A stretch of 64,000 nucleotides of DNA from Candidatus Poribacteria bacterium (GTDB taxonomy: Bacteria; Poribacteria; WGA-4E; WGA-3G). The stretch is from positions 3,684,682 through 3,748,681 of the forward strand of contig OY282374.1 in the NCBI GenBank assembly GCA_958295815.1, written 5' to 3'. A program made the position numbers and the translations under genes. The first letter of the stretch is position 1. Each line of letters begins with the position of its first letter. Shown in pieces: positions 1,803 to 53,962 of the stretch. The notes below the pieces were generated by a model, which saw nothing but the letters and a program-made list of their open reading frames with translations, ran no database searches and was not told the origin of the DNA.

Positions 1803-3812
1803 ATGTCCCAAGAATCTTCTTTAAAACGAACCCACTATTGCGGTGACCTACGCTTAGCAAACGCAGGGACGCAAGCGAGTCTTAACGGTTGGGTCAAACG
1901 CCGTCGAGACCACGGTGGTGTCATCTTCGTTGATTTACGCGACAGAACAGGTATCACGCAGGTCGTCTTTGACCCGCAGATTGATGAAAAAGCACACGCA
2001 CTCGCAGATGCCGTAAGAAGCGAATTCGTATTACATGTCAGCGGTACCGTCCGTGAACGTGATCCCGGAGAACTTCTGTTCCAAGCAGACGCTGCCTACC
2101 AAGCAGAACTCGCTGACGGTAAATTATCCGCAGCGTTCCGATCACTATTCTCGGATGCCGACCGTAAGTACACCCTCTCTGAAGAAATCGAAGTCGCAAC
2201 ACGAGAACCTGGCGCGCGTTGGCTACTCACCGATACCGAAAATAATCGGACATACCACATCGAAAACGGAGAAAACGGTCTCAGCATCTACCAAGGCACT
2301 GTCAATCCAGAACTCGACACCGGTGAAATTGAACTCGCAGTGGACGCTCTGAACATCTTGAATACCGCCAAAACACCACCATTCCCAGTTGAAGACGATG
2401 TTGAAGTGGCGGAAGACATTCGGATGCGTTATCGTTTTATCGATTTGCGCCGTCCTGAAATGCAGAAGACGTTGGCAATGCGCCATAAAGCCGCACTCGC
2501 TGCACGCAACTATATGAACGAACAGGGATTCATGGAAATCGAGACACCTATCTTGATGAACAGTACACCGGAAGGCGCACGCGATGTCCTCGTTCCGAGC
2601 CGTCATTACCCCGGAAGATTCTATGCGCTTCCGCAGTCACCACAGCAATTCAAGCAAATCCTTATGATGAGCGGTGTTGACCGCTATTTTCAAATAGCCC
2701 GATGCTTCCGCGATGAGGACACCCGCGCAGACAGGCAACTGGAGTTCACTCAACTCGATATTGAGATGTCATTCGCAGGCGTAGACGATGTCCTTGAAGT
2801 AACCGAAGGGCTGATGAAGCGCATCTTTGAAGACGCAGGCAACATCCCTGTCCAAACCCCCTTCCTGCGACTCCCCTACCAGGAGTCGATCGCACGGTTC
2901 GGAAACGATAAACCCGATACACGGTTCGGCATGGAACTTACCGACGTCTCGGATGTCATGGCAGACTGTGATTTTCAAGTATTCACACGGACCTTGGAAT
3001 CAGGTGGACAGGTCAAAGCCATTGCTGCACCAGGCGGTGCCGACTTTTCGCGCAAAGACATCGACGACTTAACAAAATTCGTCGCGACTTATCGAGCAAA
3101 AGGATTGGCATGGGTTAAAGTCACCGAAGATGGGTTTTCCTCTGGTATCGTCAAGTTTTTCACAACTGAACAACTCGAAACAGCACAAGAGCGAACAGGC
3201 GCGAACCCAGGAGACATCATGTTCTTTGTGGCTGACAGACCAAAGGTCGTCGCCGATGCACTCGGTAATCTCCGCCTCCATCTTGGGAAACAACTTAACC
3301 TTATTGATGTAACCCAATACAACTTCTTGTGGATTGTTGACTATCCGCTGTTTGAGTGGAACGAGGAAGAGAATCGATACGAACCATTCCACCATCTGTT
3401 CACTGGATGTACTGAAGAGACTTTACCTCTATTAGAATCGGATCCGGGGAAGGTTCAGAGTCAACACTACGATCTTGTGTGCAACGGATATGAAGTCTGT
3501 AGCGGTAGCGTTAGAATTCACCAGTGGGATATCCAACAGAAGGTTTTTGATGTTCTGGAGATTACACCCGAAGATGTCGAAAATCGGTTTGGATATTTCA
3601 TAGATGCCTTATCCTATGGCACACCGCCACATGCTGGGATCGCTCCGGGCTTGGATCGGATTGTTATGTTGATGCGCAATGAAGAAAATATCCGGGAGGT
3701 CATCGCCTTTCCAAAATCGCAGCAGGGACTCTGTCCGCTCACACACGCACCGTCTAATGTAACGGATGCGCAGTTAGAGGAATTGTCTATCCGCGTCGAT
3801 GCAGAAATCTAA
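1803..3812 (+). CDS. aspS: Aspartyl-tRNA synthetase (class II) with an ~75-aa insertion in the N-terminal anticodon-binding domain
   Basis: N-terminal OB-fold (HYCGDLR…GWV.RRRDHGGVIFVDLRD), class II motifs (FRDEDTRADRQLEFTQLD; GLDRIVMLM), and the GAD insertion domain. It is 669 aa versus about 590 aa typical. Confidence 0.93.
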   Translation: MSQESSLKRTHYCGDLRLANAGTQASLNGWVKRRRDHGGVIFVDLRDRTGITQVVFDPQIDEKAHALADAVRSEFVLHVSGTVRERDPGELLFQADAAYQAELADGKLSAAFRSLFSDADRKYTLSEEIEVATREPGARWLLTDTENNRTYHIENGENGLSIYQGTVNPELDTGEIELAVDALNILNTAKTPPFPVEDDVEVAEDIRMRYRFIDLRRPEMQKTLAMRHKAALAARNYMNEQGFMEIETPILMNSTPEGARDVLVPSRHYPGRFYALPQSPQQFKQILMMSGVDRYFQIARCFRDEDTRADRQLEFTQLDIEMSFAGVDDVLEVTEGLMKRIFEDAGNIPVQTPFLRLPYQESIARFGNDKPDTRFGMELTDVSDVMADCDFQVFTRTLESGGQVKAIAAPGGADFSRKDIDDLTKFVATYRAKGLAWVKVTEDGFSSGIVKFFTTEQLETAQERTGANPGDIMFFVADRPKVVADALGNLRLHLGKQLNLIDVTQYNFLWIVDYPLFEWNEEENRYEPFHHLFTGCTEETLPLLESDPGKVQSQHYDLVCNGYEVCSGSVRIHQWDIQQKVFDVLEITPEDVENRFGYFIDALSYGTPPHAGIAPGLDRIVMLMRNEENIREVIAFPKSQQGLCPLTHAPSNVTDAQLEELSIRVDAEI

Positions 3813-3925
3813 GGCGACACTGATTTTGCTGGGCGAGGTTTCTAACCTCGCCTACTTCAACACTCTAAAGGCGACACTACTTATGCTGGCGAGGTTTCTA
3901 ACCTCGCCTATTTCAACTCTCTATC
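3811..3925. repeat. Tandem duplication of a ~57-bp unit, each copy carrying the hairpin ggcgaggtt-tct-aacctcgcc
   Basis: Direct repeat 'aaggcgacact..ttgctgggcgaggtttctaacctcgcctacttcaacactct' x2. The perfect 9-bp inverted repeats are at 3832-3852 and 3888-3908. Confidence 0.8.
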
Positions 3926-3952
3926 AAATTTGTCTATACGGAGGTAAACCCA

Positions 3953-6250
3953 ATGCATTTCACTAAAAAACAACACATATTTACTTACACACTCATGCTT
4001 TGTGCTTTGCTTCTCCTGATTCCACTGAGCACATTGGCACAGACCGTTAACATTCCAGACAACAACCTTCGAGAGGCAATTAATGAGACACTTGGCAAGG
4101 AACCAAATGCTCAGATTACGATGGATGAAATGCTCAGGTTAACTCACTTTGAGGCGAATTTCGTCAATATTCGCAACCTGCGAGGACTGGAAGCCGCTAC
4201 GAATCTGGAAGTTTTACGAATGGATGGTAACCAGATATCCAACCTATCACCGCTCGCTGGGTTGGTTAAACTCCGTCGTATTGACTTAGAAGAAAACGCT
4301 ATATCCGACTTATCACCCCTCGCTGGAGTAATTAGTTTAGAGCGTTTGAATATCTCTCATAACGCGGTTTCTGATATATCACCCCTCGCCGAACTAACGA
4401 ACTTAAGGGGTTTTGCATTCCATCATAACGTGATAACGGATCTATCGCCGCTGGCAAATTTGCCAAAACTGGAATGGATTGGGATGAGTGATAACCCATT
4501 CGTTGACCTCGAACCTTTAGCAGAGACCACCAGCCTTACCGGTGTCCACGGTTGGGGGACACCCGTCCTAAACATCGGCGCACTTGGTAACTTACCCAAA
4601 ATGCGGGAGATCAATATCTGCGGTGGCGATATCTCCGATCTCTCCGGACTTGAGAACTTAAAAAGTCTAAAGACCCTTTATCTGCCCGGGAACCAAGTTT
4701 CAGACCTTTCACCCATAGAAAATTTAACAGGAATAACACGCATCAACCTTGAAGGGAATAGGGTTTCCGACGTATCACCACTCGCATCACTAAGCAACCT
4801 AACTTGGATAGACCTACGCCGCAATACAGTCTCCGACGTTTCTCCCCTTGCTGAACTCAACAGTTTGACATGGCTTGACCTTACCCAAAATTCCGTCTCG
4901 GACGTATCCGATCTTGCATTTTTACCGAACTTGAATTGGTTAGGACTCACAGACAATACGCTCACAGACCCAACGACTTTAGAAAGATTTTCTGAGGGGA
5001 CAGCGATCACATATTCCGATTTCGTCAACTCCGCCTTGCCTGAAGGAGGTCCGAAAATAGAGGGACCTTGGTTATGGGCAATCGTGCCGAATGCAGGATT
5101 CGGTACAAAAGATTTGTTAGCGATAGCGAGCAATGGTGCTGCCACCGAAGTAAAAGTTGCCACATTTGGAGCCACCGAAGATAAGGTGATCGGGAGTGGT
5201 AAGTGGCGCGCACACTTGCTCTCCGCCACAGGTGGAGATAACCTTAATCAGATGACAGACGCACTCGGATGGGGGTCGGGTTCCGAAATATACGAGCATG
5301 TTGTTTATGGTTCCGTTACCTTAGAGTCCCCGCGTAGACAGGAAACAACAATGCTTGTCGGCAGCGATGATGAGGTAAAGGTCTGGCTTAATGGTGAAGT
5401 GGTTCACTACAATTCTGTGATCCGAGGTGCTGGTGATTATCGGGATGCCTTTCCTGTTACATTGAAGAAGGGAACAAATGTTTTATTAGTAGCCGTTAGC
5501 AATCTCGGACATGGTGCATTTAGCGGTTTTTTTGGTTTCGCTCAGGACGCAGAATATACCGTCAACGCTCCAGGTGACCCAATCGTCATAGAAATTTCCC
5601 CTTCGGATATTAACAGAGATGGAATCATAAACATCTTGGATCTGATTCTCGTAGCACGGGACTTAGGCAATACCGAATCTGACAACGCACGCACGGATGT
5701 CAATGCTGATGGAAAGCGAAACATATTGGATCTCAATCTTGTGGCTCGACATATAAACAAAGCTTCGAGTACTGCCGCTCCCGCTGCCTTGGCAACATCG
5801 GATGTGTTTATAACTGCCGGAGGAGTTTCTAACCCCGAAATTTCTCCAGATATGATACGCACATGGATAGCATGGGCGCAGCTTGAGAGCGACGGTTCGC
5901 TTATCTTCCAACAAGGCATCGCGAATCTTAAACGGCTCTTAGCATCTCTGATTCCTGAAAGAACAGCGTTGCTCGCCAACTACCCGAACCCATTCAATCC
6001 GGAGACATGGATACCCTATCAACTCGCAGAACCGACTGCAGTTACATTGCATATCTATGCGGTAAGTGGGGCATTGGTTCGGACATTGGAGTTAGGACAT
6101 CAATCCGCAGGACGCTATCAAGACAGAAGTCGTGCAGCATATTGGGATGGGAAAAACGAGGTCGGTGAATCTGTCGCGAGCGGTATATATTTCTATACCC
6201 TCACCGCAGGAAACTTCACAGGTACTGGCAAAATGCTCATAAGGAAGTAG
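3953..6250 (+). CDS. Secreted leucine-rich-repeat protein with a lectin-like middle domain, a dockerin-type double repeat and a T9SS/FlgD-Ig-like C-terminal sorting domain
   Basis: Signal peptide, then ~13 LRRs of the 'ISDLSPLAGL..L..L.L..N' type. A ~170-aa domain is shared with the next gene (GGPKIEGPWLW…VWLNGEVV…GFFGFAQDAEYTV). The dockerin is 'DINRDGIINILDLILV…DVNADGKRNILDLNLV'. The C-terminus reads 'NYPNPFNPETWIPYQL…IYAVSGALVRTL…WDGKNEVGE.VASGIYFY.L…KMLIRK'. Confidence 0.8.
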   Translation: MHFTKKQHIFTYTLMLCALLLLIPLSTLAQTVNIPDNNLREAINETLGKEPNAQITMDEMLRLTHFEANFVNIRNLRGLEAATNLEVLRMDGNQISNLSPLAGLVKLRRIDLEENAISDLSPLAGVISLERLNISHNAVSDISPLAELTNLRGFAFHHNVITDLSPLANLPKLEWIGMSDNPFVDLEPLAETTSLTGVHGWGTPVLNIGALGNLPKMREINICGGDISDLSGLENLKSLKTLYLPGNQVSDLSPIENLTGITRINLEGNRVSDVSPLASLSNLTWIDLRRNTVSDVSPLAELNSLTWLDLTQNSVSDVSDLAFLPNLNWLGLTDNTLTDPTTLERFSEGTAITYSDFVNSALPEGGPKIEGPWLWAIVPNAGFGTKDLLAIASNGAATEVKVATFGATEDKVIGSGKWRAHLLSATGGDNLNQMTDALGWGSGSEIYEHVVYGSVTLESPRRQETTMLVGSDDEVKVWLNGEVVHYNSVIRGAGDYRDAFPVTLKKGTNVLLVAVSNLGHGAFSGFFGFAQDAEYTVNAPGDPIVIEISPSDINRDGIINILDLILVARDLGNTESDNARTDVNADGKRNILDLNLVARHINKASSTAAPAALATSDVFITAGGVSNPEISPDMIRTWIAWAQLESDGSLIFQQGIANLKRLLASLIPERTALLANYPNPFNPETWIPYQLAEPTAVTLHIYAVSGALVRTLELGHQSAGRYQDRSRAAYWDGKNEVGESVASGIYFYTLTAGNFTGTGKMLIRK

Positions 6251-6425
6251 AAATAAACTGCATCCAAGAAAATGGAACGCTGCCTTGGTAGGCAAGGTTT
6301 CCCAACTTTCCCGGTACACTCTGTTGGGCGAGGTCCCCGTGCCTCGCCTTCTCCGCACCTTCTATAGTGTATGGGTAAATCTAAAATCTACTATGGTGCC
6401 TCTGTCTATTGGTTATTAAAGGAAA

Positions 6426-9400
6426 TTGATGATGAAAAACAATAAATACATCCCTCTAATAATCTTAACATTCATTGGATTAGGATTTACAACAGTAGAT
6501 GCCCAACAAGACATCGCACAACAGGCGTATGCCATCATTCAACAAAGTTGCCTCGACTGCCACGGACCTCACGGCACATTTACTGAACAACTCACCATTG
6601 TGTCTGCACCACAATTGATTGCTACCGGAACCGTTGTCCGTGGAAATCCTGATGCCTCCGAGTTCTATAACCGACTCCTTGGACCCACCGGAAACGGTGC
6701 ACAGATGCCTTTCGGTCAATCTCCGCTCTCACCAGCAGCGATTGCTACACTGCGACAGTGGATTCAAGCAGGCGCACCGGCTTGGGAGACCCAGCGTGAT
6801 GTCAACTTCATTACAACCGATACAATGTTGACTACCATGCAGAGACATCTGGCATCTCTTGATGCATTTAGTCGTCCGTTCGCTCGTTATTTTACGACGA
6901 CCCACCTCTACAACGCCGGTGAAAGCCTTGAGACACTTCGTGCCTATCAGATTGCGCTCTCGAAACTCGTGAATAGTCTCTCTTGGGGTTTTAGTGTTAT
7001 TAACCCAATTCCCATTGACACAGAAGAGACGATCTTCTATATCGACTTACGCGATTACGAATGGGACCTCCGAGGCGACACATGGGCGCGAGTTGAACAG
7101 GCATATCCGTATGCTATTGCGTTCGATCCGGTGGCGCAAGCAGGACTGTCATCGAAACTGAACCAGTTACGTCAAGAGATGGAGTGTGAAGTCCCGTTCG
7201 TGCATGCTGACTGGTTTCTTGCGACTGCCTCACTCCCACCGTTGTATCACGATATTCTGGATTTGCCAGCAACGGATAAAGAACTGGAGAGAAAACTCGG
7301 TATAGATGTTGAGAGAAATCTGCAAAGTGCTCCGGGATTTCGCGTCTGGCGTGCGGGATTCAACGAATCAGGTGTGTCGAATAATAACCGTGTTGTTGAA
7401 CGTCACAGATCACCTCATGGTGCGTATTGGAAGAGTTATGACTTTGCTGAAAGTAGGGGAACGAAAAATATCTTAACGCATCCATTATCTTTTGATCACG
7501 ATGGTGGTGAAGTTATCTTCAATCTTCCGAACGGTTTGCAGGCATATTACATCTCGGATGCGTCGGGTAACCGAATAGATGTAGCACCGACAGAAATCGT
7601 ATCGAATCGATCGGCGAGTGATCCTGCCGTCCGCAACGGTTTGTCGTGTATCGGTTGTCACACAGAAGGAATCAAGGAGTTTGAAGATGATGTTCGTGGC
7701 GTTGTAGAACAGATAGAAAACCCGATTTTTGACAAAGAGCAGGCGTTACGATTATATGTTGAAAAATCGGTGATGGATGCGCATATTGAGGTGGATAAGG
7801 AGCATTACAAAACGGCGTTGGAAGAAACGGGCGGCGTATTTGGGGGTATTGAGCCAGTGAGTCGCCTCTATGAAGAGTTTCAAGATCCGCTTGATGCCTC
7901 ACACGCTGCGGCTGCTGTCGGCTTAGAAACATCGGCGTTCCGCGCGGAGATTGATGAGAAATCGAGTCTACAAAATTTAGGTTTGACAAGTCTCCTTGAT
8001 GGTGGGAACGTGCAACGTGATGCGTGGACAGAGCAATTCCAGCGAGTGATTGCTGCCTTAAACTCTCCAGATACGATAACCATTCTGCCGCCAGTGGACG
8101 ACCCTCCAGATCAAACCACATCGGATGAAATTGTTAGCATACCGGATCCTAATCTTCGGGCTGTCATTGAAGAAAGGTTGAGCAAAACTTCAGGGGCTCC
8201 TATTACGGCAGTAGAGATGGCAAGATTGACGCGTATTGATGCCCACGAGAGAGGCATACGTGATCTAACAGGGCTTGAACACGCAGTAAAACTCGAACGA
8301 ATAGAATTAGAGCGCAATTCTATATCCGACCTATCTCCGTTGGCGGGATTAATCCGTTTGGATAACATTAAATTGCGTGGGAATAGAATAACAGACGTAT
8401 CGCCACTCGCAAACTTAACCAGGTTGGATTGGCTCGGTCTTGAGGAGAATGAGATTACCGATTTATCCCCGTTACGCGGACTGATAAAACTCAACGGGAT
8501 AGGGATTTCGCACAATCCTATCTCAGATATATCAGCACTGTCAAGTTTAAGGAGTTTAGAAGGTATAGATGCGCGGGGGACGAACATCTCCGATTTTTCC
8601 GCCTTAGCACAGATACCACGGTTCCGGTGGATAGAATTCGGCGAAGACAAATCGATCTCAGAATTGCCCTCTCTGAAAGGTTTGACAACTTTGAGTCGTC
8701 TGGAGATTACAAACTGCAGTGTTACCGACCTTTCTGAATTGGAAGGATTAACACAGTTGACCTCGCTGATATTAAATGGTAATTTAATATCGGATCTCTC
8801 TCCATTGGCAGGACTAACAGGCTTGAACGACCTACATCTTGCCCGAAATGTCATATCGGATGTCTCATCCTTAAAAGGGTTAACCGGATTGCAAGAACTA
8901 TATCTTGACGAAAACCTTGTGTCCGATGTATCACCCCTCGCCGGGCTAACGAACTTAAAGGAATTATGGCTCCAGCACAACGCCATATCTGACTTTTCAC
9001 CTTTGGAAGTGTTAGCCGAGAAGATAATTATCAGATCAGTAGATAACCCCGGTGTCCTCAAGCAAGGAGGTCCAAAAATAACAGGACCGTGGTTATGGAT
9101 ATTATTTCCGGAAACACAATTTGAAGGTTTCGATAACACGGATTTGCTTGCCAGTGCAAGTAACCGGAAGGTAACAGAGCGAGAAATTGCTACGAATGGT
9201 GCAGTGGAAGGGGAATCCGTTGGTGACAAGGTTTGGCTTTCTGGTAAAATAGAATCTTCCGGATGGGATAACATCAGTATGGTGTTGCGAACGCTAGGTA
9301 TTCCCCCAGCCGATGGTAAACAGAATGTGGTCTACGGTTCCATTACCTTGGATTCTCCACGGGAACAAGAAACGAATATGTTTGTTGGAAGTCATACAAG

Positions 9401-17283: not shown

Positions 17284-18612
17284 ATGATACTCGAAAAATT
17301 ATTTGAGTTAAAAAAGACTGGCACCTCGGTGAGACGTGAACTGGTCGCAGGTTTTACGAACTTTATGACAATTTCATATATAATCTTCGTTCAGCCTGCC
17401 TTGCTCTCAATAGCCGGTATGGATTCTGGTGCTGTCATGGTTGCGACCTGTGTATCCAGTGCAATCGCAACGTTTTTTATGGCGTTTCTAACCAATTATC
17501 CGGTCGTGTTAGCACCTGGTATGGGACTTAACGCCTATTTTGTTTTCGATGTTTGTCAAGGTGCTGGCTTACCATGGCAGCAGGCATTGGGCATCGTTTT
17601 CATATCAGGCATGTTATTCTTCATACTTTCATTCGTCGGAATCCGTGAAGCCGTCATGAATGCCATCCCACACTCACTCCAGAATGCTATCGCTATCGGG
17701 ATTGGCCTCTTTATTGCCTTTATCGGTCTGCAGATGAGCGGAGTAATTATAAGTCATCCGGCGACATACATAACCCGCGGGGATCTCTTATCAACCCCTG
17801 TTTTACTCTCTCTATTCGGTATTGCTGTAACTCTCGCACTCATGGCGCGCAAAGTCAAAGGCGCAATTCTAATTGGTATCCTTGTTGCAGCTGTCGCCAA
17901 CCTCGTCTTTGGGATTGCCAAATACGAGGGCATCGCCGCACCGCCGCCTTCTATCTCACCAACGCTCTTCAAACTGGAAATTCCGAATATCTTCGCCAAA
18001 CTGGAACTGATTTCTGTAATCTTCGTCTTCTTTTCCATTGACATGTTCGATAGCATTGGCACGCTTACGGCTATCGGTTACAGAGCGGAGTTGCTTGAAG
18101 AAGGGAAACTCGCAAAAGCAAGGAGAGCACTTATTACAGATGCTGGGGGCACTGTTGGTGGTGCTTTGCTCGGTACCTCAACCGTTACATGTTACATTGA
18201 AAGCGCGACCGGGATTACTGTTGGTGGCAGGACGGGACTTACCGCTGTCTTCACGGGAATTTTTATGTTGCTATCCCTCGTCTTCTATCCACTCGTTAAA
18301 ATAGTTGGGGGTGGTTATGCGATTAGCCAAACCACCACACTTTACCCGATTATCGCCCCCGCACTCATCGTCGTCGGCGGATTGATGCTCAGAAATCTCA
18401 GCCAGATTGACTGGGAAGACCTCACAGAATCCGTCCCTGCGTTTCTGACAATGATAATGATGCCACTCTCCTTCAGCATAACAGACGGCATTGGCTTCGG
18501 ACTTATCTCCTTAGCATTTCTCAAGTTAGTAACTGGACGTGGAAAAGAAGTAAATCCGATCGTCTACTACTTTGCCCTTTTCTTCATCGCCTGCTACATC
18601 GGAGACCTATAG
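17284..18612 (+). CDS. NCS2-family purine permease, AzgA/PbuG-like (adenine/guanine/hypoxanthine)
   Basis: 'MILEKLFELKKTGTSVRRELVAGFTNFMTISYIIFVQPALLS' is the typical AzgA N-terminus. There are ~12 TM segments, and an SD 'aaggaggg' precedes the ATG at 17284. Confidence 0.85.
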   Translation: MILEKLFELKKTGTSVRRELVAGFTNFMTISYIIFVQPALLSIAGMDSGAVMVATCVSSAIATFFMAFLTNYPVVLAPGMGLNAYFVFDVCQGAGLPWQQALGIVFISGMLFFILSFVGIREAVMNAIPHSLQNAIAIGIGLFIAFIGLQMSGVIISHPATYITRGDLLSTPVLLSLFGIAVTLALMARKVKGAILIGILVAAVANLVFGIAKYEGIAAPPPSISPTLFKLEIPNIFAKLELISVIFVFFSIDMFDSIGTLTAIGYRAELLEEGKLAKARRALITDAGGTVGGALLGTSTVTCYIESATGITVGGRTGLTAVFTGIFMLLSLVFYPLVKIVGGGYAISQTTTLYPIIAPALIVVGGLMLRNLSQIDWEDLTESVPAFLTMIMMPLSFSITDGIGFGLISLAFLKLVTGRGKEVNPIVYYFALFFIACYIGDL

Positions 18613-18636
18613 AGAAGACGACCCCCAAATAGAAAA

Positions 18637-18658
18637 GGTGCGGTTCCCCAACCGCACC
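18637..18658. terminator. Perfect hairpin ggtgcggtt-cccc-aaccgcacc, 25 nt after the permease stop
   Basis: A 9-bp inverted repeat seen directly in the sequence. It has the GGTT…AACC architecture shared with the other hairpins in the window. There is no strong U-tract, so it may not be an intrinsic terminator. Confidence 0.45.
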
Positions 18659-18674
18659 ATATCTCATAAATCGT

Positions 18675-18938
18675 GGGAGGGGTTTCTAACCCCGATGTGC
18701 TTCTGAAAGCTTACTATCTCCGCTGAGAAGTTTTCCAATCTCGTCAATCATAAGGTCTATAGGTAATCATAGGCTTTACTATAATTATCCACAGAAGTGA
18801 TTTCCGAACTGTATCGATCCATAGCCCCAGCGGGGCGATATGTGTATAGCAGCATAGATTCTTCCGCTGATCCAGCCCCAGCGGGGCGGCATGTGTATAA
18901 CGTACTAACTGCTCTTTGTAGGAGGGGTTTGTAACCCC
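18675..18938. repeat. Cluster of short intergenic repeats: a hairpin (gggaggggtttctaaccccg), 2 copies of a ~30-bp unit 'agccccagcggggcg[at/gc]atgtgtata', and a copy of the 'ctgctctttgtaggaggggtttgtaaccccgac' element
   Basis: The ~30-bp copies lie at 18823-18852 and 18875-18903. The element at 18905-18938 recurs at 52355-52391. Confidence 0.8.
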
Positions 18939-18981
18939 GACGCTTTACAAGTGTTCATGTAATTAGACTTTATCAAGAACT

Positions 18982-19335
18982 ATGGAAACCACTAATTTGA
19001 AACAACGCTTGGCACAAGGCGAAAATACCGACACTGAATTCAAAGAGAACTTCGATCAGGAGGCTATTGAGACCAAAATCATCTTTGACTCACCGATTCA
19101 AGAGACAACTTTTGTTGAAATTGATGACATTTCAGAGCAGTTAAACGGACGTCAAAAGAACGCTTTTTCCTATGCACAAAGACGTGGAGAAATCTCGAAA
19201 AGAGAATATATGGAAATCAATCATGTGTCACATCGGATTGCCTACACCTAATTAAGGGATATGACGGATAAAGGGTTATTGTCTATGGTAGGGAAGGGGA
19301 GGTCAACTAAGTACGTACGAAAAATAACTGATTAG
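18982..19335 (+). pseudogene. Remnant of an AlbA_2 / HATPase_c_4-type (Schlafen-like, 'RecG-like helicase-domain') transcriptional regulator: first ~25 aa of the AlbA_2 domain joined to the C-terminal wHTH, with an in-frame TAA
   Basis: The N-terminus 'LKQRLAQGENTDTEFKENF' matches the 'GE.etlEFK' start of divergent-AAA/AlbA_2 domains. The C-terminus 'ISKREYMEINHVSHRIAYT*LRDMTDKGLLSMVGKGRSTKYV' matches the conserved wHTH (…TNKEY.ELTGVS.RTA.RDL..LVEKGLL.RVGKGRST.Y). The stop at 19252-19254 is in the same frame. The central ~350 aa are missing. Confidence 0.6.
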
Positions 19336-19470
19336 GTAACTGATTAATTGGGCGATTACGCACCGAATGTATCTGTAATCCACAGTGAAGCGTTATGTCT
19401 GTAATCGGAAGGAAGCAAGGTTGATTAATTAAGCGATTGGTAAACAATTCTCGTAAGGAGTTTGTCCTAC

Positions 19471-20775
19471 ATGCCAGATAAAAACATCTCAGGCATCACC
19501 AAGATAGCTGTAAAAGGCTTCAAGTCCATAGCGGAGGAGCGTGAAATCGACATCCGTCCACTGACGATCCTTGCCGGTGCGAACAGTTCCGGGAAATCCA
19601 GTATCATGCAACCGCTATTGATGTTAAAACAGACGTTGGAGGCACCCTACGATCCAGGACCGCTATTAATTGATGGACCGAACGTTCGGTTTACTTCGAT
19701 AACCCAATTTTTGTCCATGTTACCTGACAAAAAGGAAATAGACTGTTTTCAGGTTCGGATTGAAATTCATGTGCCTGATTCTTATCGCTCGGTTACCACG
19801 ACTTTCAGAAAAGGTATAAATCGGATTGAACTTATCGAAATGACAGCAAAAGAGAGGGTAAGAAACAACCATACTTTATCTCCGGAATGTTTGACCTTGT
19901 ATCCTGAGATGGAATCTGAAGAAATTAAATCAGCAATTGAAGGACTCTCAATTCCCAAAAATCTTGAGACAGTAAAGCGTTTCCGATGTTTTTTAGTTCT
20001 TGGATTCAAAGATGGTTATACGATTTTCACCGTTACCCCTGATTTTGAGTCCAATATTCTTAACAGCATCCATCTCCCCGGTTTACGCGGAAACCCAGAA
20101 CGCATATACAAACTCACTAGCACTGGACCACTGTATCCGGGTACGTTTGAAAACTATGTTGCGAGTATCGTCCACGAGTGGCAGGAGACGAAAGACGGAC
20201 GCCTAAAAATGGTAGGCGATGCCCTTCACACGCTTGGACTGACAGGACAGGTCCGCGCTAACAAAATCAATGATGCCAATATTGAACTTCAAGTTGGTCG
20301 CCTCCCTCACGACAGAACCAACGACATGGATATGGTCAATATCGCTGATGTAGGTTTTGGTGTATCCCAAGTCCTTCCTGTTTTGGTTGCTGTGATTGTC
20401 GCAGAGCCGGGGCAGCTGGTCTATCTTGAACAACCCGAACTGCACCTCCATCCGCGCGCGCAAGTCGCATTAGCACGAGTCCTTGCAGACGCTGCAAAAC
20501 GAGGGGTGCGTGTTGTCACTGAAACACACAGTTCATTACTGCTTTTGGGGATTCAAACGCTTGTTGCCGAAGGAGACCTCACCCCAGAGTTAGTGAAACT
20601 CCACTGGTTCACACGACGTGAAAATGGTGTAACTGAAGTTACCAGTGCTAATTTAGACGAGGCAGGAACTTACGGGGATTGGCCCGAAGATTTTGCAGAT
20701 GTCAGTCTCAATGAACAAAGTCGTTATCTTGATGCCGTTGATAACGTAAAGTTTGGTAACACGGAGGCTTCGTGA
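19471..20775 (+). CDS. Soluble ABC-type ATPase of the AAA_21/DUF3696-like class (no transmembrane domain)
   Basis: Walker A 'LTILAGANSSGKSS', a degenerate signature 'VGFGVSQVLP', Walker B 'QLVYLEQPELHLHP', and H-loop 'VVTETHSSLLL'. An SD 'aaggag' lies 10 nt upstream of the ATG at 19471. It is translationally coupled to the next gene (GTGA overlap). Confidence 0.8.
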   Translation: MPDKNISGITKIAVKGFKSIAEEREIDIRPLTILAGANSSGKSSIMQPLLMLKQTLEAPYDPGPLLIDGPNVRFTSITQFLSMLPDKKEIDCFQVRIEIHVPDSYRSVTTTFRKGINRIELIEMTAKERVRNNHTLSPECLTLYPEMESEEIKSAIEGLSIPKNLETVKRFRCFLVLGFKDGYTIFTVTPDFESNILNSIHLPGLRGNPERIYKLTSTGPLYPGTFENYVASIVHEWQETKDGRLKMVGDALHTLGLTGQVRANKINDANIELQVGRLPHDRTNDMDMVNIADVGFGVSQVLPVLVAVIVAEPGQLVYLEQPELHLHPRAQVALARVLADAAKRGVRVVTETHSSLLLLGIQTLVAEGDLTPELVKLHWFTRRENGVTEVTSANLDEAGTYGDWPEDFADVSLNEQSRYLDAVDNVKFGNTEAS

Positions 20776-21305
20776 GAGATAGAAATTCAAAACGATTGGT
20801 GATTGACACTGATGTTGTCCAATCGTCAGGTGATGAAGAAGCAACCGATCCACGAGCCGTTCATTGTCGTGATTTCCTAAAGGAAGTGAGGTCTCAGAAT
20901 CATAGGGTGGTAATGACAAGAAAAATCAGTGATGAATGGAAAAGACATCAATCTCGCTTTTCCCTTGAATGGAGAGTGTCGATGGATGCTCGCAGAAGAG
21001 TGGATCGCGTTGATCCACCGGAAAATGAAAAACTGCGAGACAAGATCGTTGATACAACAAGCAATCAAGATGAGATCGCGGCACTGCAAAAAGATTTTCA
21101 TCTTCTCCAAGCTGCATTGGCAACCGATCAGACGATCATTTCGCTTGATGAAATCATCCGAAAACTTTTTGCACGTGTTTCCCAACAGGTTGGAGAAATT
21201 AGGCATGTTATCTGGGTGAATCCTGATCGAACTACAGAAGAGCAACCGATCACTTGGCTCCAAAGCGGCGCACCGCCTGAAACACACCGCCAACTTTCTG
21301 CTTAA
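20772..21305 (+). CDS. Small PIN-like (possibly TOPRIM-like) putative nuclease partner of the ATPase
   Basis: The GTG start overlaps the upstream TGA. 'KRLVIDTDVVQS' resembles PIN motif I (hhhDTshhh), and 'LQAALATDQTIISLDEIIRKLF' resembles the PIN C-terminal 'A.A…LhTxD..f' motif. There are no HNH or Cys motifs. Confidence 0.5.
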   Translation: MRDRNSKRLVIDTDVVQSSGDEEATDPRAVHCRDFLKEVRSQNHRVVMTRKISDEWKRHQSRFSLEWRVSMDARRRVDRVDPPENEKLRDKIVDTTSNQDEIAALQKDFHLLQAALATDQTIISLDEIIRKLFARVSQQVGEIRHVIWVNPDRTTEEQPITWLQSGAPPETHRQLSA

Positions 21306-22403: not shown

Positions 22404-22800
22404 AAGTCAGTCCCCAAATTCTTCGTCCCTTGGTAGGCGAGGTTTCCTAACCTCGCTGGTTTCGCACTGTATCAGAAAATGTAAAATCCACTATAGCTGT
22501 TTACTCTGAACCCAGAGTGATATAATTTTAGCAGTTAGTCACCATTGGGTCAACGACATTTTTCGGAAGGATTCAATGCCGTCAATGAAGTTGAAAAAAT
22601 ATTCGCTACTTTTATAAAGGACAAGTATCAATCAAAAACAGACCATAATCCTGCAAATCCTTTAATCCTGTAAATCCTGGTTCAGACAATATCTTGTCAA
22701 ACTTATCTATCAATAGCTGTCGAGAATCCGTTATACTCTTGCACTAATTACCAATTTTTGTTAAAATATCACGACTATAGCACAATTCGGAGGAAAATAA

Positions 22801-44318: not shown

Positions 44319-44352
44319 TTATAGGACGAGATCCTAAGATCTCGTCCTATAA
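44319..44352. terminator. Perfect 15-bp inverted repeat (ttataggacgagatc-ctaa-gatctcgtcctataa) immediately downstream of the pckG stop
   Basis: Seen directly in the sequence. It is positioned 18 bp 3' of the minus-strand pckG stop and is followed by T-rich sequence on the + strand. Confidence 0.55.
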
Positions 44353-46163: not shown

Positions 46164-46321
46164 TTAAACCTCCAGTTGTTGAATACATTTATTATTACTC
46201 CTATATATTTTACAACAAATTTCCCGACTTCGCAAATTAAATCCAAAATAGTCTATAGGTTAGGCGTCGATTATTTTTTCCAATTGCTGCTGGAAAATCA
46301 CGTCTATCGAGATTAAGCGAC

Positions 46322-52171: not shown

Positions 52172-52299
52172 TAATCTCGTCTATTCGTTGAGATGTTTCC
52201 TAACCTTCCAGTCTGCCTTTCTAATTGTAGGTGCTGTTTGTAACCCCACTGGTCCTTCATCGGTGAATTCTAAAATAAATAGACATTATTAACACACAT

Positions 52300-52391
52300 G
52301 GGATCTGCTCTTTGTAAGGGATCTGCTCTTTGTAGGGGATCTGCTCTTTGTAGGGGATCTGCTCTTTGTAGGAGGGGTTTGTAACCCCGAC
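52300..52391. repeat. 18-bp tandem repeat 'gggatctgctctttgta[a/g]' x4, followed by hairpin ggggtttgtaacccc
   Basis: Copies at 52300-52317, 52318-52335, 52336-52353 and 52354-52371. The last copy merges into the 'ctgctctttgtaggaggggtttgtaaccccgac' element that also occurs at 18905-18938. Confidence 0.85.
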
Positions 52392-52629
52392 TCTTATAAG
52401 TGTCCAAGTCATTCTAAAATCTACCAATGTTACATTGCTGCTCTATTGAAACGTCTATTTCTACATTTCTCCAAGCGTATTGGTAAATCTAAAGTCTGCT
52501 ATAAGTACTCCTAAATTCGCAGCGGAATTTAGTGCTTCTGTAGGAGAGAACTTCAGCTCGCGACTTCCTCGGAAAATCCATGAAAATAGTGAAAACTCAA
52601 TGCTACTATAAATGTCGTGTGGTGTCTTT

Positions 52630-53962
52630 AGGGTCATTTAGTTTTAAAAATTATTTTTTAGTAAAGTCAATGGCTGTTTAGGATGTGCGGCAAAATAGCG
52701 CATGGTTGATGTGATAGCTTTATATCCTGCTAAACGCAATATAGATAAAGTCGTGTTCCGCAACGCCGCCATGACTGCTGGGATGCCTCCACAGCGAACT
52801 TGAGAAAGATCTTCACCCAAGACGACATCCCGGAGCCAATGCGACTTATTCTCTATAGCCCAATGCCCACGGCGTAATGTCATCAAGTCAGACGCAGAAG
52901 CGAGATGACTTTCAAGACTGGTGATGCCATATTGCGTCTGACTTGATGTTTCCCCCGTCCGTGGGTGCTTCCGCTGATATGTATATTCAAAGACTTGTGC
53001 GACCCCGGGCCATTGGAGATAAGTATTCAGGGCGGTGCTGGCAGTCAACCGACGCATCTCAATGCGTCCATGGGCTTTATCAAGAGTTTCAACGCTGTCG
53101 AGAGTTTCCTGCCAATCTCGATGTTCTGCCTGAAGGCGTTGATATGCGGTTTGAAAGGTTTTAGCGTCGGGAGGCGGTTGAAATAAACGTTGGATTGCCT
53201 GAAACATCTCTTTCTGATTCGCCTTGACGGGTAAGACGTAATCGCCTCCCGACGCTAAAACCGATTCACAGAACTTGCGTTGCGTCAACAAGGCATCGGC
53301 TGTCACAACCTTTTCAGAGACATCAAAAACTTTCAGAATCTCAAGGGAGACAGGGAGTTCATGGGTCTTCTCAGACATTGCTTTTTGCGTCAAGGTAACA
53401 CCGAGTTGATGCGAAACAACAGACATCAAGTGTGTTATCTTCGCACCTTGTTTGCGACTCCCACGCAAGGTTTTGCCATCTATAGCGACTGCCGTTAGAC
53501 CACCTTGACTCCCCCAACCCAAGTCCTCAAGCGCAGCGACGACCCATTGGGTTAGGGTCTCTTCTAAGGCATTGACATCTAATCTATGAAAAAGATTGTA
53601 GAGCGTCGCAGCACAAGGCGTCTGCTTGTATGTAAAACCCAAGGCTTTTCTCAACATCTTATACGTCCGTCCATATTCAGCAATAGCTGCATAACTGCGA
53701 TATCCAGACATTATCGCAATGATGGCGAGTGCGAGGATCGCCTTCAGTGGGTGTCGCTTGCCTTTTTCCTTGCGTGGGTCTGGCACTAATGCTAACATGT
53801 CAAGCAAGTGGCGAGAGGGTTTTCTCGTCATGGTCTTCACCTCAAAGGTTGTAGTGGATTTTTAAGGTGAAGTATAGCATGTATGGCGTGAAAACTCACG
53901 TCATACATGCGTACATAGAAACATACCTTCCCCAAACAAAAACTTAAAACTAAATGACCCTG
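52630..53962 (-). mobile_element. ISAs1-family insertion sequence (~1.33 kb) with 18-bp terminal inverted repeats
   Basis: The IRs are 'agggtcatttagttttaa' (52630-52647) and its reverse complement 'ttaaaactaaatgaccct' (53945-53962). Between them sits a single transposase ORF. Confidence 0.85.
52644..53840 (-). CDS. ISAs1-family (H-repeat-associated) DDE transposase
   Basis: An N-terminal DDE_Tnp_1-associated region (…LVPDPRKEKGKRHPLKAILALAIIAIMSG…), then 'IDGKTLRGS' and 'HWAIENKSHWLRDVVLGEDLSQVRCGGIPAVMAALRNTTLSILRLAG', which is typical of ISAs1 transposases. Confidence 0.85.
   Translation of the reverse strand: MKTMTRKPSRHLLDMLALVPDPRKEKGKRHPLKAILALAIIAIMSGYRSYAAIAEYGRTYKMLRKALGFTYKQTPCAATLYNLFHRLDVNALEETLTQWVVAALEDLGWGSQGGLTAVAIDGKTLRGSRKQGAKITHLMSVVSHQLGVTLTQKAMSEKTHELPVSLEILKVFDVSEKVVTADALLTQRKFCESVLASGGDYVLPVKANQKEMFQAIQRLFQPPPDAKTFQTAYQRLQAEHRDWQETLDSVETLDKAHGRIEMRRLTASTALNTYLQWPGVAQVFEYTYQRKHPRTGETSSQTQYGITSLESHLASASDLMTLRRGHWAIENKSHWLRDVVLGEDLSQVRCGGIPAVMAALRNTTLSILRLAGYKAITSTMRYFAAHPKQPLTLLKNNF

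Follow-up and report, generated by a model that had tools for sequence, protein, structure and literature searches.

The locus

The stretch of DNA that we analysed, hereafter the window, comprises 64,000 nucleotides of a Candidatus Poribacteria genome, with a GC content of approximately 47%. Its genes include ordinary housekeeping genes, such as those for AspRS, Der (14801-16225), LepA, SelB with tRNA-Sec, PEPCK and Omp85, among others. In the interval 57574-59627, selB is followed immediately by a tRNA-Sec with anticodon TCA, and the organism thus uses selenocysteine. Two large LRR proteins with dockerin/cohesin domains and a FlgD_ig-type C-terminal domain are encoded at 3953-6250 and 6426-10661, between AspRS and an SDF transporter gene (10783-12369). 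In a relative, the metagenome contig L121, the SDF transporter gene comes directly after AspRS, so that these eukaryote-like LRR genes represent a variable insert between conserved neighbours. Beside a repeat-rich spacer (18612-19462) lies the gene of an ATPase with AAA_21/AAA_15 (AbiEii-like/OLD-type ATPase) domains at 19462-20775; together with the small ORF downstream of it (20772-21305), which has no Pfam match, it may constitute a defence-type gene pair.

Parts of the window have orthologous counterparts in the genomes L003, L106 and L086 and in the contig L121, at 79-85% nucleotide identity. The latter was the only Poribacteria relative found when metagenomes were scanned with a degenerate AspRS pattern; it covers the hairpin that follows AspRS, and it ends short of the intergenic region discussed next.

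A first-pass annotation of the window had flagged a recurring intergenic composite, typified by the region around 6327-6398, in which a hairpin with a GGTT…AACC core is followed by a conserved block of about 20 bp. We built a profile HMM from the complete elements described below and searched it against the window with nhmmer, which yielded five matches. The features relevant to the composite are listed here in order of position.

3811-3923, + strand: two tandem 56-nt units (TRF period 56, 2.0 copies), each with a solo REP-like hairpin GGCGAGGTTTCTAACCTCGCC (3832-3852, 3888-3908)
6288-6312, + strand: degenerate solo hairpin unit GGTAGGCAAGGTTTCCCAACTTTCC (weak nhmmer match, 6271-6302)
6325-6396, + strand: left-truncated MITE copy, the one flagged (HMM positions 58-116 at 6325-6394, E=1e-3; right-TIR PWM 22.5-25)
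12385-12474, + strand: left-truncated MITE copy (HMM positions 44-117 at 12394-12474, E=2e-10; PWM 36.2; fold)
18637-18658, + strand: solo hairpin of the GGTGCGGTT…AACCGCACC stem family
18669-18694, + strand: solo hairpin GGGAGGGGTTTCTAACCCCGA of the GGGGTT…AACCCC family
18715-18784, + strand: left-truncated MITE copy (HMM positions 50-117 at 18715-18783, E=1e-4; PWM 29-30)
18918-18938, + strand: solo hairpin GTAGGAGGGGTTTGTAACCCC with a GTAG prefix
22418-22496, + strand: left-truncated MITE copy in a divergent intergenic region (HMM positions 42-117 at 22418-22495, E=1e-9; TIR weight matrices)
52258-52428, + strand: near-complete degenerate MITE in a convergent intergenic region (HMM positions 6-115 at 52263-52426, E=5e-8)
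52475-52503, + strand: isolated right-TIR-like fragment GCGTATTGGTAAATCTAAAGTCTGCTATA (PWM 20-22)

Hairpins and the downstream block in the window

The hairpins that were originally reported are indeed present. Stems of the form GGCGAGG…CCTCGCC occur at 3832-3852, 3888-3908, 6327-6348, 12410-12431 and 22437-22456, the hairpin GGTGCGGTT-cccc-AACCGCACC at 18637-18658, and GGGGTTTsTAACCCC hairpins at 18675-18694, 18924-18938 and 52374-52388. The string GGTTNNNAACC is found seven times in the window against 0.99 expected, a count of seven being reached in none of 100 shuffles. The downstream block is equally real: the 20-mer occurs at 12459-12478 without mismatches and at 22480-22499 with three, against 0.03 expected, and its 15-mer core recurs with at most one mismatch at 6382, 12461 and 22482, and in weaker form (2-3 mismatches) at 52415 and 52490. 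Since the counts of both hairpins and block are far above those expected by chance, we conclude that the observation does not reflect coincidence.

Some details require correction. Several of the positions given for the block are displaced by 1-6 nt (12465 becomes 12459, 52419 becomes 52413, and 52490 becomes 52488), and the weaker copies proposed at 46243-46260 and 3930-3946 are not recognised by the TIR weight matrices. A hairpin-motif pair does precede the start codons at 6426 and 12558; at 3953, however, the supposed pair consists of hairpins only, because no motif stands behind the hairpins at 3832 and 3888. The gap from hairpin to motif is 22-32 nt in the window, compared with about 18-20 nt in intact copies elsewhere.

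In total, the window contains four left-truncated copies of the element and one degenerate, near-complete copy. The flagged copy has its central hairpin, with a variant loop, at 6327-6348 and its right TIR at 6367-6395, and 30 nt separate its end from the start codon at 6426. In the copy at 12385-12474, there are an outer stem (TTATGATGCG/CGCGTCATAA), the hairpin at 12410-12431 and the right TIR (12446-12474), which ends in …CTACCA-TA, where the hyphen marks the element boundary. This insert is absent from the orthologous spacer of the related genome L086, and the right junction, …ATAG-TTGTCAGT, is common to both. The copy at 18715-18784 consists of a degenerate hairpin (gagaagttttccaatctcgtc) and a right TIR at 18755-18783, and the copy at 22418-22496 of a GTAG-prefixed hairpin (22433-22457) and a right TIR at 22467-22495. 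Only the copy at 52258-52428 retains a left TIR, in decayed form (approximately 52258-52286, tcatcGGTGAATTCTAAAATAAATAGACAT), along with a hairpin (52368-52388) and a right TIR (52400-52428); within it, an 18-nt unit, GGGATCTGCTCTTTGTAG, is tandemly repeated 4.1 times (52300-52372). The window thus gives the appearance of "hairpin, then motif" because four of its copies have lost the left arm and the fifth has decayed. Since most of these copies are truncated, their identification as MITEs depends upon their homology to complete copies elsewhere.

The tandem units at 3811-3923 are of a different kind, in that the region of the AspRS stop codon has been duplicated together with the hairpin and no TIR is attached. 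The first of the two hairpins, at 3832, begins 19 nt past the AspRS stop codon.

Several further patterns of the window may be recorded here. All eight right-TIR-like matches and all hairpin loops are in + orientation, even beside minus-strand genes, and the cumulative GC skew falls steadily across the window. A palindrome with a perfect stem of 15 bp, TTATAGGACGAGATC-ctaa-GATCTCGTCCTATAA, lies at 44319-44352 between the genes for a fatty-acid desaturase and PEPCK; it is unique in the sampled DNA, and its ends (TA-TAG…CTA-TA) resemble the termini of the MITE.

Architecture of the complete element

We searched for exact copies of the 21-nt hairpin GGCGAGGTTTCTAACCTCGCC in one genome per species. 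Among the matches listed, more than 117 stretches in about 35 Poribacteria assemblies carry it, nearly all of them in Poribacteria MAGs, and the chromosome OX639992.1 alone accounts for more than 20 hairpin loci among the matches listed. From the Poribacteria loci we obtained 125 distinct hairpin contexts; the sampled Poribacteria DNA amounts to approximately 0.96 Mb of hairpin-centred loci.

A 30-nt motif, GTGTCyAAkTAATTsTrrrnyyTACyATAA, follows about 52 of the 125 hairpin copies (44-52, depending upon the score cut-off). The offset is 7-9 nt in 47 copies; four others have 3 nt, and one has 1 nt. The motif contains the right TIR, GTGTCyAAkTAATTsTnnnnyyTACyA, of about 29 nt, and a TA that comes after it; the block of 20 bp noticed earlier is the outer 20 nt or so of this TIR. 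Upstream of the hairpin, at a distance of 15-45 nt, lies the left TIR, TA-TAGTAAAaCCgAAAAATAAgTnGACA (inverted counterpart TTATAGTAAAaCCgAAAAATAAgTnGACA), and both TIRs are present in 36 of the 125 copies. Altogether we found 54 distinct complete elements, which are non-coding and 94-160 bp in length, with size modes near 104 and 117 bp. Their order is TA, the left TIR TAGTAAAaCCgAAAAATAAgTnGACA, a C-rich spacer, the GC-rich hairpin, about 8 nt, the right TIR and the duplicated TA. The centres vary from element to element, and are occupied either by different members of the hairpin family or by other small palindromes, such as GTAGGAGGGA…TCCCGAC, GCAGGCTGGGTT…AACCCAGCCTGC and CCCCCCTGATAAGGGGGG.

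The two ends share positions 1-9 (TATAGTAAA), 16-17, 19-20 and 26-28 of the TIR. Position 4 co-varies between them: both ends have A in 38 elements and G in 13, and only one element is discordant (agreement in 51 of 52). Positions 15, 18 and 22, on the other hand, differ systematically between left and right, and are non-complementary between the arms, so that the element has a polarity. Conserved mismatches of this kind are more readily explained by two ends that bind a protein than by selection on an RNA stem.

In OX639992.1, near-identical copies occur at unrelated loci, and their similarity stops exactly outside …TACTA-TA. Truncated copies of both kinds occur in the wider sample, 13 with the right TIR only and 10 with the left TIR only. 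Right-only and left-only truncations are thus about equally common, and the arrangement seen in the window is a quirk of sampling rather than a designed cassette.

The element therefore has the architecture of a MITE, is spread in multiple copies, has sharp boundaries and is flanked by a TA duplication. We estimate a probability of about 0.85 that the flagged composite represents the centre (the hairpin) and the right TIR of a non-coding MITE, some 105-120 bp long, that is specific to Candidatus Poribacteria and dispersed through its intergenic DNA. Among the interpretations that had been offered for the composite, it is the dispersed REP/MITE-like element that proves right: the block is the outer part of a TIR, with the hairpin at the centre of a MITE that duplicates TA.

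Transposition and the search for a transposase

Insertion of the element into TA is seen at L065, where one element is nested in another. A family-A element there occupies the TA of 'gtTAatt' within the right TIR of a family-B element, and the family-B element occupies in turn the TA of 'aatTAatt' within a family-C right TIR. Both insertions have a TA on each side, whereas the uninterrupted TIR has a single one. We also joined the flanks of the 54 elements and searched for the resulting empty sites, which gave three junction-spanning matches. One of these was examined as a filled/empty pair: the element at 3956-4058 of L089 corresponds to an empty site in L109 with one TA, …gcggatttt-TA-attttaccttgcgg. 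In the other two, neighbouring MITEs seem to have matched one another. Orthologous intergenic regions of related species differ in their repeat content, and the target context is t-TA-a.

IS630/Tc1-mariner transposases are recognised by the 2-bp duplication of TA that they leave. The strict TA duplication of the element would thus point to a DDE enzyme of this type, and the mobilising enzyme is probably IS630/Tc1-mariner-like and TA-targeting. Such a transposase, supplied in trans, would bind both TIRs, cut the element out and re-insert it at a TA, preferably within T-TA-A. The centre of the element is modular, with different elements carrying different members of a set of small GC-rich hairpins, and these hairpins also exist alone as REP-like units (G-CT/TA plus GGCGAGGTTTCTAACCTCGCC), mostly just past stop codons. 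Any effect of the element on the promoters or 3' ends of neighbouring genes would be a by-product.

Neither an autonomous element nor a TA-type transposase bounded by the TIRs was found in the window and the 0.96 Mb of hairpin-centred DNA, which is a weak test. The largest spacing between paired TIRs, at any distance, was 466 bp in the sampled loci; no DDE_3-type gene was seen in these loci, and tblastn with Mos1 mariner and IS200 TnpA queries gave no match in the sampled DNA. The only transposase gene of the window (52644-53840, − strand; DDE_Tnp_1_assoc and DDE_Tnp_1 domains) lies directly beside the degenerate MITE at 52258-52428. From its domains we read it as ISAs1-type, and the ISAs1 family is not expected to make TA duplications. 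The end region of this gene (53732-53900) has matches of 75-77% in L021 and L079.

Two kinds of candidate were considered and discarded. Terminal 10-mers 0.7-2.5 kb apart enclose ORFs in two cases, both of which are ordinary genes between separate MITEs, and the multi-copy ORF clusters of the sample proved to encode an EamA transporter, ECF sigma factors and TPR proteins instead of transposases. One such cluster has 20 paralogous members, at L001, L018, L031 and other loci, and ECF sigma-factor domains were identified in the single member that was scanned; near hairpin copies, the members form tandem groups of up to four.

The hairpin as an independent unit

In 66 of the 125 contexts the hairpin stands alone, without a TIR, and its flanks are unlike the C-rich interior of the MITE. 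A G at position -3 is present in 120 of the 125 copies, within a prefix that is GTA-G in about one third and GCT-G in most others; the 3' flank is unconserved. On its own, therefore, the hairpin also behaves as a REP-like repeat, given that it is often solo, has a conserved 5' prefix and is placed after stop codons.

The compensated stems from which selection on structure had been argued are borne out in the wider sample, and the argument is reasonable for the hairpin unit. Counted per strand, in a sample that was fetched with the GGCGAGG hairpin and is therefore biased towards it, GGCGAGGTT/AACCTCGCC occurs about 143 times, GGTGCGGTT/AACCGCACC 13 times and GGCGCGGTT/AACCGCGCC five times, and the rarer stems GGCGGGGTT/AACCCCGCC, GGTTCGGTT/AACCGAACC and GGCTGGGTT/AACCCAGCC once or twice each. 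The fully compensated families are GGCGAGG, GGTGCGG, GGCGCGG, GGCGGGG, GGTTCGG and GGCTGGG.

Solo hairpins follow a co-oriented gene in 41 cases versus 17, often 10-50 nt past its stop codon, and they are rare in divergent spacers (6 of 54). Between co-directional genes, the orientation of the hairpin favours the sense direction by only 2:1. The hairpin behind AspRS is found 17-22 nt past the stop codon in five species, identical in four of them and with two changes in L121, and the spacer around it has diverged while the hairpin has been kept. This conservation suggests that the hairpin either is constrained, by a role at 3' ends or by a protein that binds it, or is still being homogenised. 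Since a purely selfish repeat should decay, and would not be expected to stay so exactly conserved between species, some function of the hairpin at the level of the host seems likely.

A more specific proposal is that the hairpin is a phylum-wide, sequence-specific 3'-end signal (a terminator or an mRNA stabiliser), with the MITE acting as the vehicle for exchangeable hairpin cassettes and possibly providing an outward -10 box. A dedicated protein could bind the hairpin, and purifying selection or homogenisation could keep it identical. We consider this proposal unlikely.

Other repeat families are present in Poribacteria as well. They include a hairpin GCCCCAGCGGGGCG followed by (A/C)ATGTGTAT, and the form GTAGGTTGGGTT-N-AACCCAAC; these families occur in the window at 18824, 18875, 23921 and 38893, and also at L003, L013, L059, L080, L082 and L106, often in arrays with the GGCGAGG hairpin and in the same orientation.

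Alternative explanations

It is important to weigh the MITE against three other accounts of the composite. The most serious of these is that the composite belongs to a REP/REPIN system spread by a RAYT (Y1 HUH) transposase that recognises the GTAG hairpin, with the flanking motifs as mere bystanders. The hairpin is certainly of the right kind, being a GC-rich palindrome of 21 nt with a conserved 5' trinucleotide, several stem families related by compensated changes and an extragenic placement 3' of genes; the frequency of solo copies, whose flanks differ from the interior of the MITE, points in the same direction, as do arrays of different GTAG-hairpins that fill orthologous intergenic regions. 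However, TIRs of about 29 nt and a TA duplication are not RAYT features, and so a RAYT could explain the solo hairpins but not the composite. Nor did we find a Y1 transposase or RAYT, whether among the hairpin-flanked ORFs, with a crude screen for HUH/Y motifs or in a tblastn search with IS200 TnpA, tests that have weak power. As an account of the composite, a RAYT system is thus possible but doubtful. An alternative in which the composite was selected as a regulatory cassette appears considerably less probable, and indeed quite improbable. Here the hairpin would end the upstream transcript and the block (…TACTATAA) would supply the -10 box of the next gene. The end of the element together with its TA target does read TAyyATAA, which is -10-like. 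At many loci its distance upstream of a Shine-Dalgarno sequence and ATG is 10-40 nt; in the window, the starts at 6426 and 12558 follow 30 and 83 nt after it. The excess of solo hairpins shortly past co-oriented stop codons would also be expected of a terminator, and the ends of such MITEs can form promoters in the Correia elements of Neisseria (PMC2649163). But the outward ends of the element face the 5' ends of genes 68 times and their 3' ends 52 times, at a median distance of about 105 nt for both, so that the placement of the element gives no support to a selected promoter cassette, and there is no bias towards the 5' ends of genes. The closeness to the starts at 6426 and 12558 is, in the absence of such a bias, what short intergenic spacers would give anyway. 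Moreover, the motif occurs as an inverted pair whose truncations fall on either side, and copies are also found in convergent spacers, such as the one at 52258-52428.

The corresponding signals were also searched for directly. No -35-like hexamer lies at 16-18 nt, whether the -10 box is taken as TACyAT or as yATAAn, and none of the window's right TIRs has an outward promoter in a sigma-70 scan, although the promoter rules of the host may differ. The hairpins are not followed by a T-tract on the + strand in any copy, and a scan for intrinsic terminators lists only 18637-18658, on the opposite strand. Thus the terminator-plus-promoter cassette is unsupported as the element's reason to exist, and the suggestion of a binding site for a global regulator fares no better, given that the motif occurs as inverted pairs that bound a mobile unit. 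The remaining account, in which the two arms pair as the long stem of a structured small RNA or of a cis-regulatory RNA, is the least probable of all, and we would give it very little weight. The fold of complete elements is indeed a long hairpin whose stability exceeds that of shuffled sequences (z = -4.7 and -3.9), and the central stem has compensated variants. Against this, mismatches are conserved at positions 15, 18 and 22 of the arms, the relation of the element to its neighbouring genes is not fixed, the window copies lack one arm, and the elements have no match in Rfam. In particular, searches of Rfam 15 returned only tRNA-Sec and tRNAs, both for the window (gathering threshold and E<=5) and for 15 loci (gathering threshold).

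Comparison with known systems

We found no paper, in the library searched, that links Poribacteria to MITEs or to repeats of this sort. The element is undescribed, and it belongs to an already known type of selfish repeat. RUP of Streptococcus pneumoniae is about 107 bp long and has been proposed to be moved by IS630-Spn1. RUP and other IS630-derived MITEs resemble the Poribacteria element in size (approximately 105-120 bp), in their TIRs, in the TA duplication and in a presumed dependence on a transposase supplied in trans; RUP differs in having a matching IS630-family element in the same genomes, whereas the Poribacteria element has no such partner in the sampled DNA.

The element is also like the Correia elements (CREE/NEMIS) of Neisseria. 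These are likewise non-coding, about 70-160 bp long and bounded by inverted repeats, insert at TA, are present in more than 100 copies, and have no known transposase of their own. Their end, which we take to be TATAGTGGATTAA…, resembles the TATAGTAAA/TATGGTAGATTT of the Poribacteria element. What sets the latter apart is a compact central hairpin, GC-rich and taken from an exchangeable set, together with asymmetric TIRs and a host in a different phylum. The end of a CREE together with its target can complete a -10 box, and the CREE transcript can form a hairpin (PMC2649163). Roles in promotion, IHF binding and RNase III processing are established for CREE, whereas the Poribacteria element has no bias towards promoter positions. 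The element would appear to work like IS630-type MITEs (RUP) and Correia elements. Size, TIRs, TA duplication, lack of coding capacity and high copy number are common to them, but these features do not suffice to place it in either sequence family.

The solo hairpin, in turn, resembles the REP/REPIN sequences of E. coli and Pseudomonas: it is short, GC-rich, palindromic, extragenic and often 3' of genes, with several stem families and a conserved 5' G-T-A-G or G-C-T-G. The composite differs from REPs in its TIRs and TA duplication, which REPs do not have, and no RAYT was found in the sampled loci. Conserved ends around a variable or exchangeable middle module are also known from the pneumococcal BOX and the enterobacterial ERIC elements, and the Poribacteria element shares this organisation with them; the sequences differ, and we know of no demonstrated TA duplication for either family.

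Implications

A recurring intergenic pattern in an uncultivated phylum of sponge symbionts is here explained as mobile DNA, which avoids its mis-annotation as promoters, operators or small RNAs. The consensus and the profile are useful for masking and annotating Poribacteria MAGs, whose assemblies such repeats also fragment, and copies of the element provide presence/absence markers for population studies at the level of strains. The strict conservation of the 21-nt hairpin, together with its placement after stop codons, suggests a host function that can be tested. If the hairpin were indeed a 3'-end signal, mobile DNA would be re-wiring transcript boundaries across Poribacteria.
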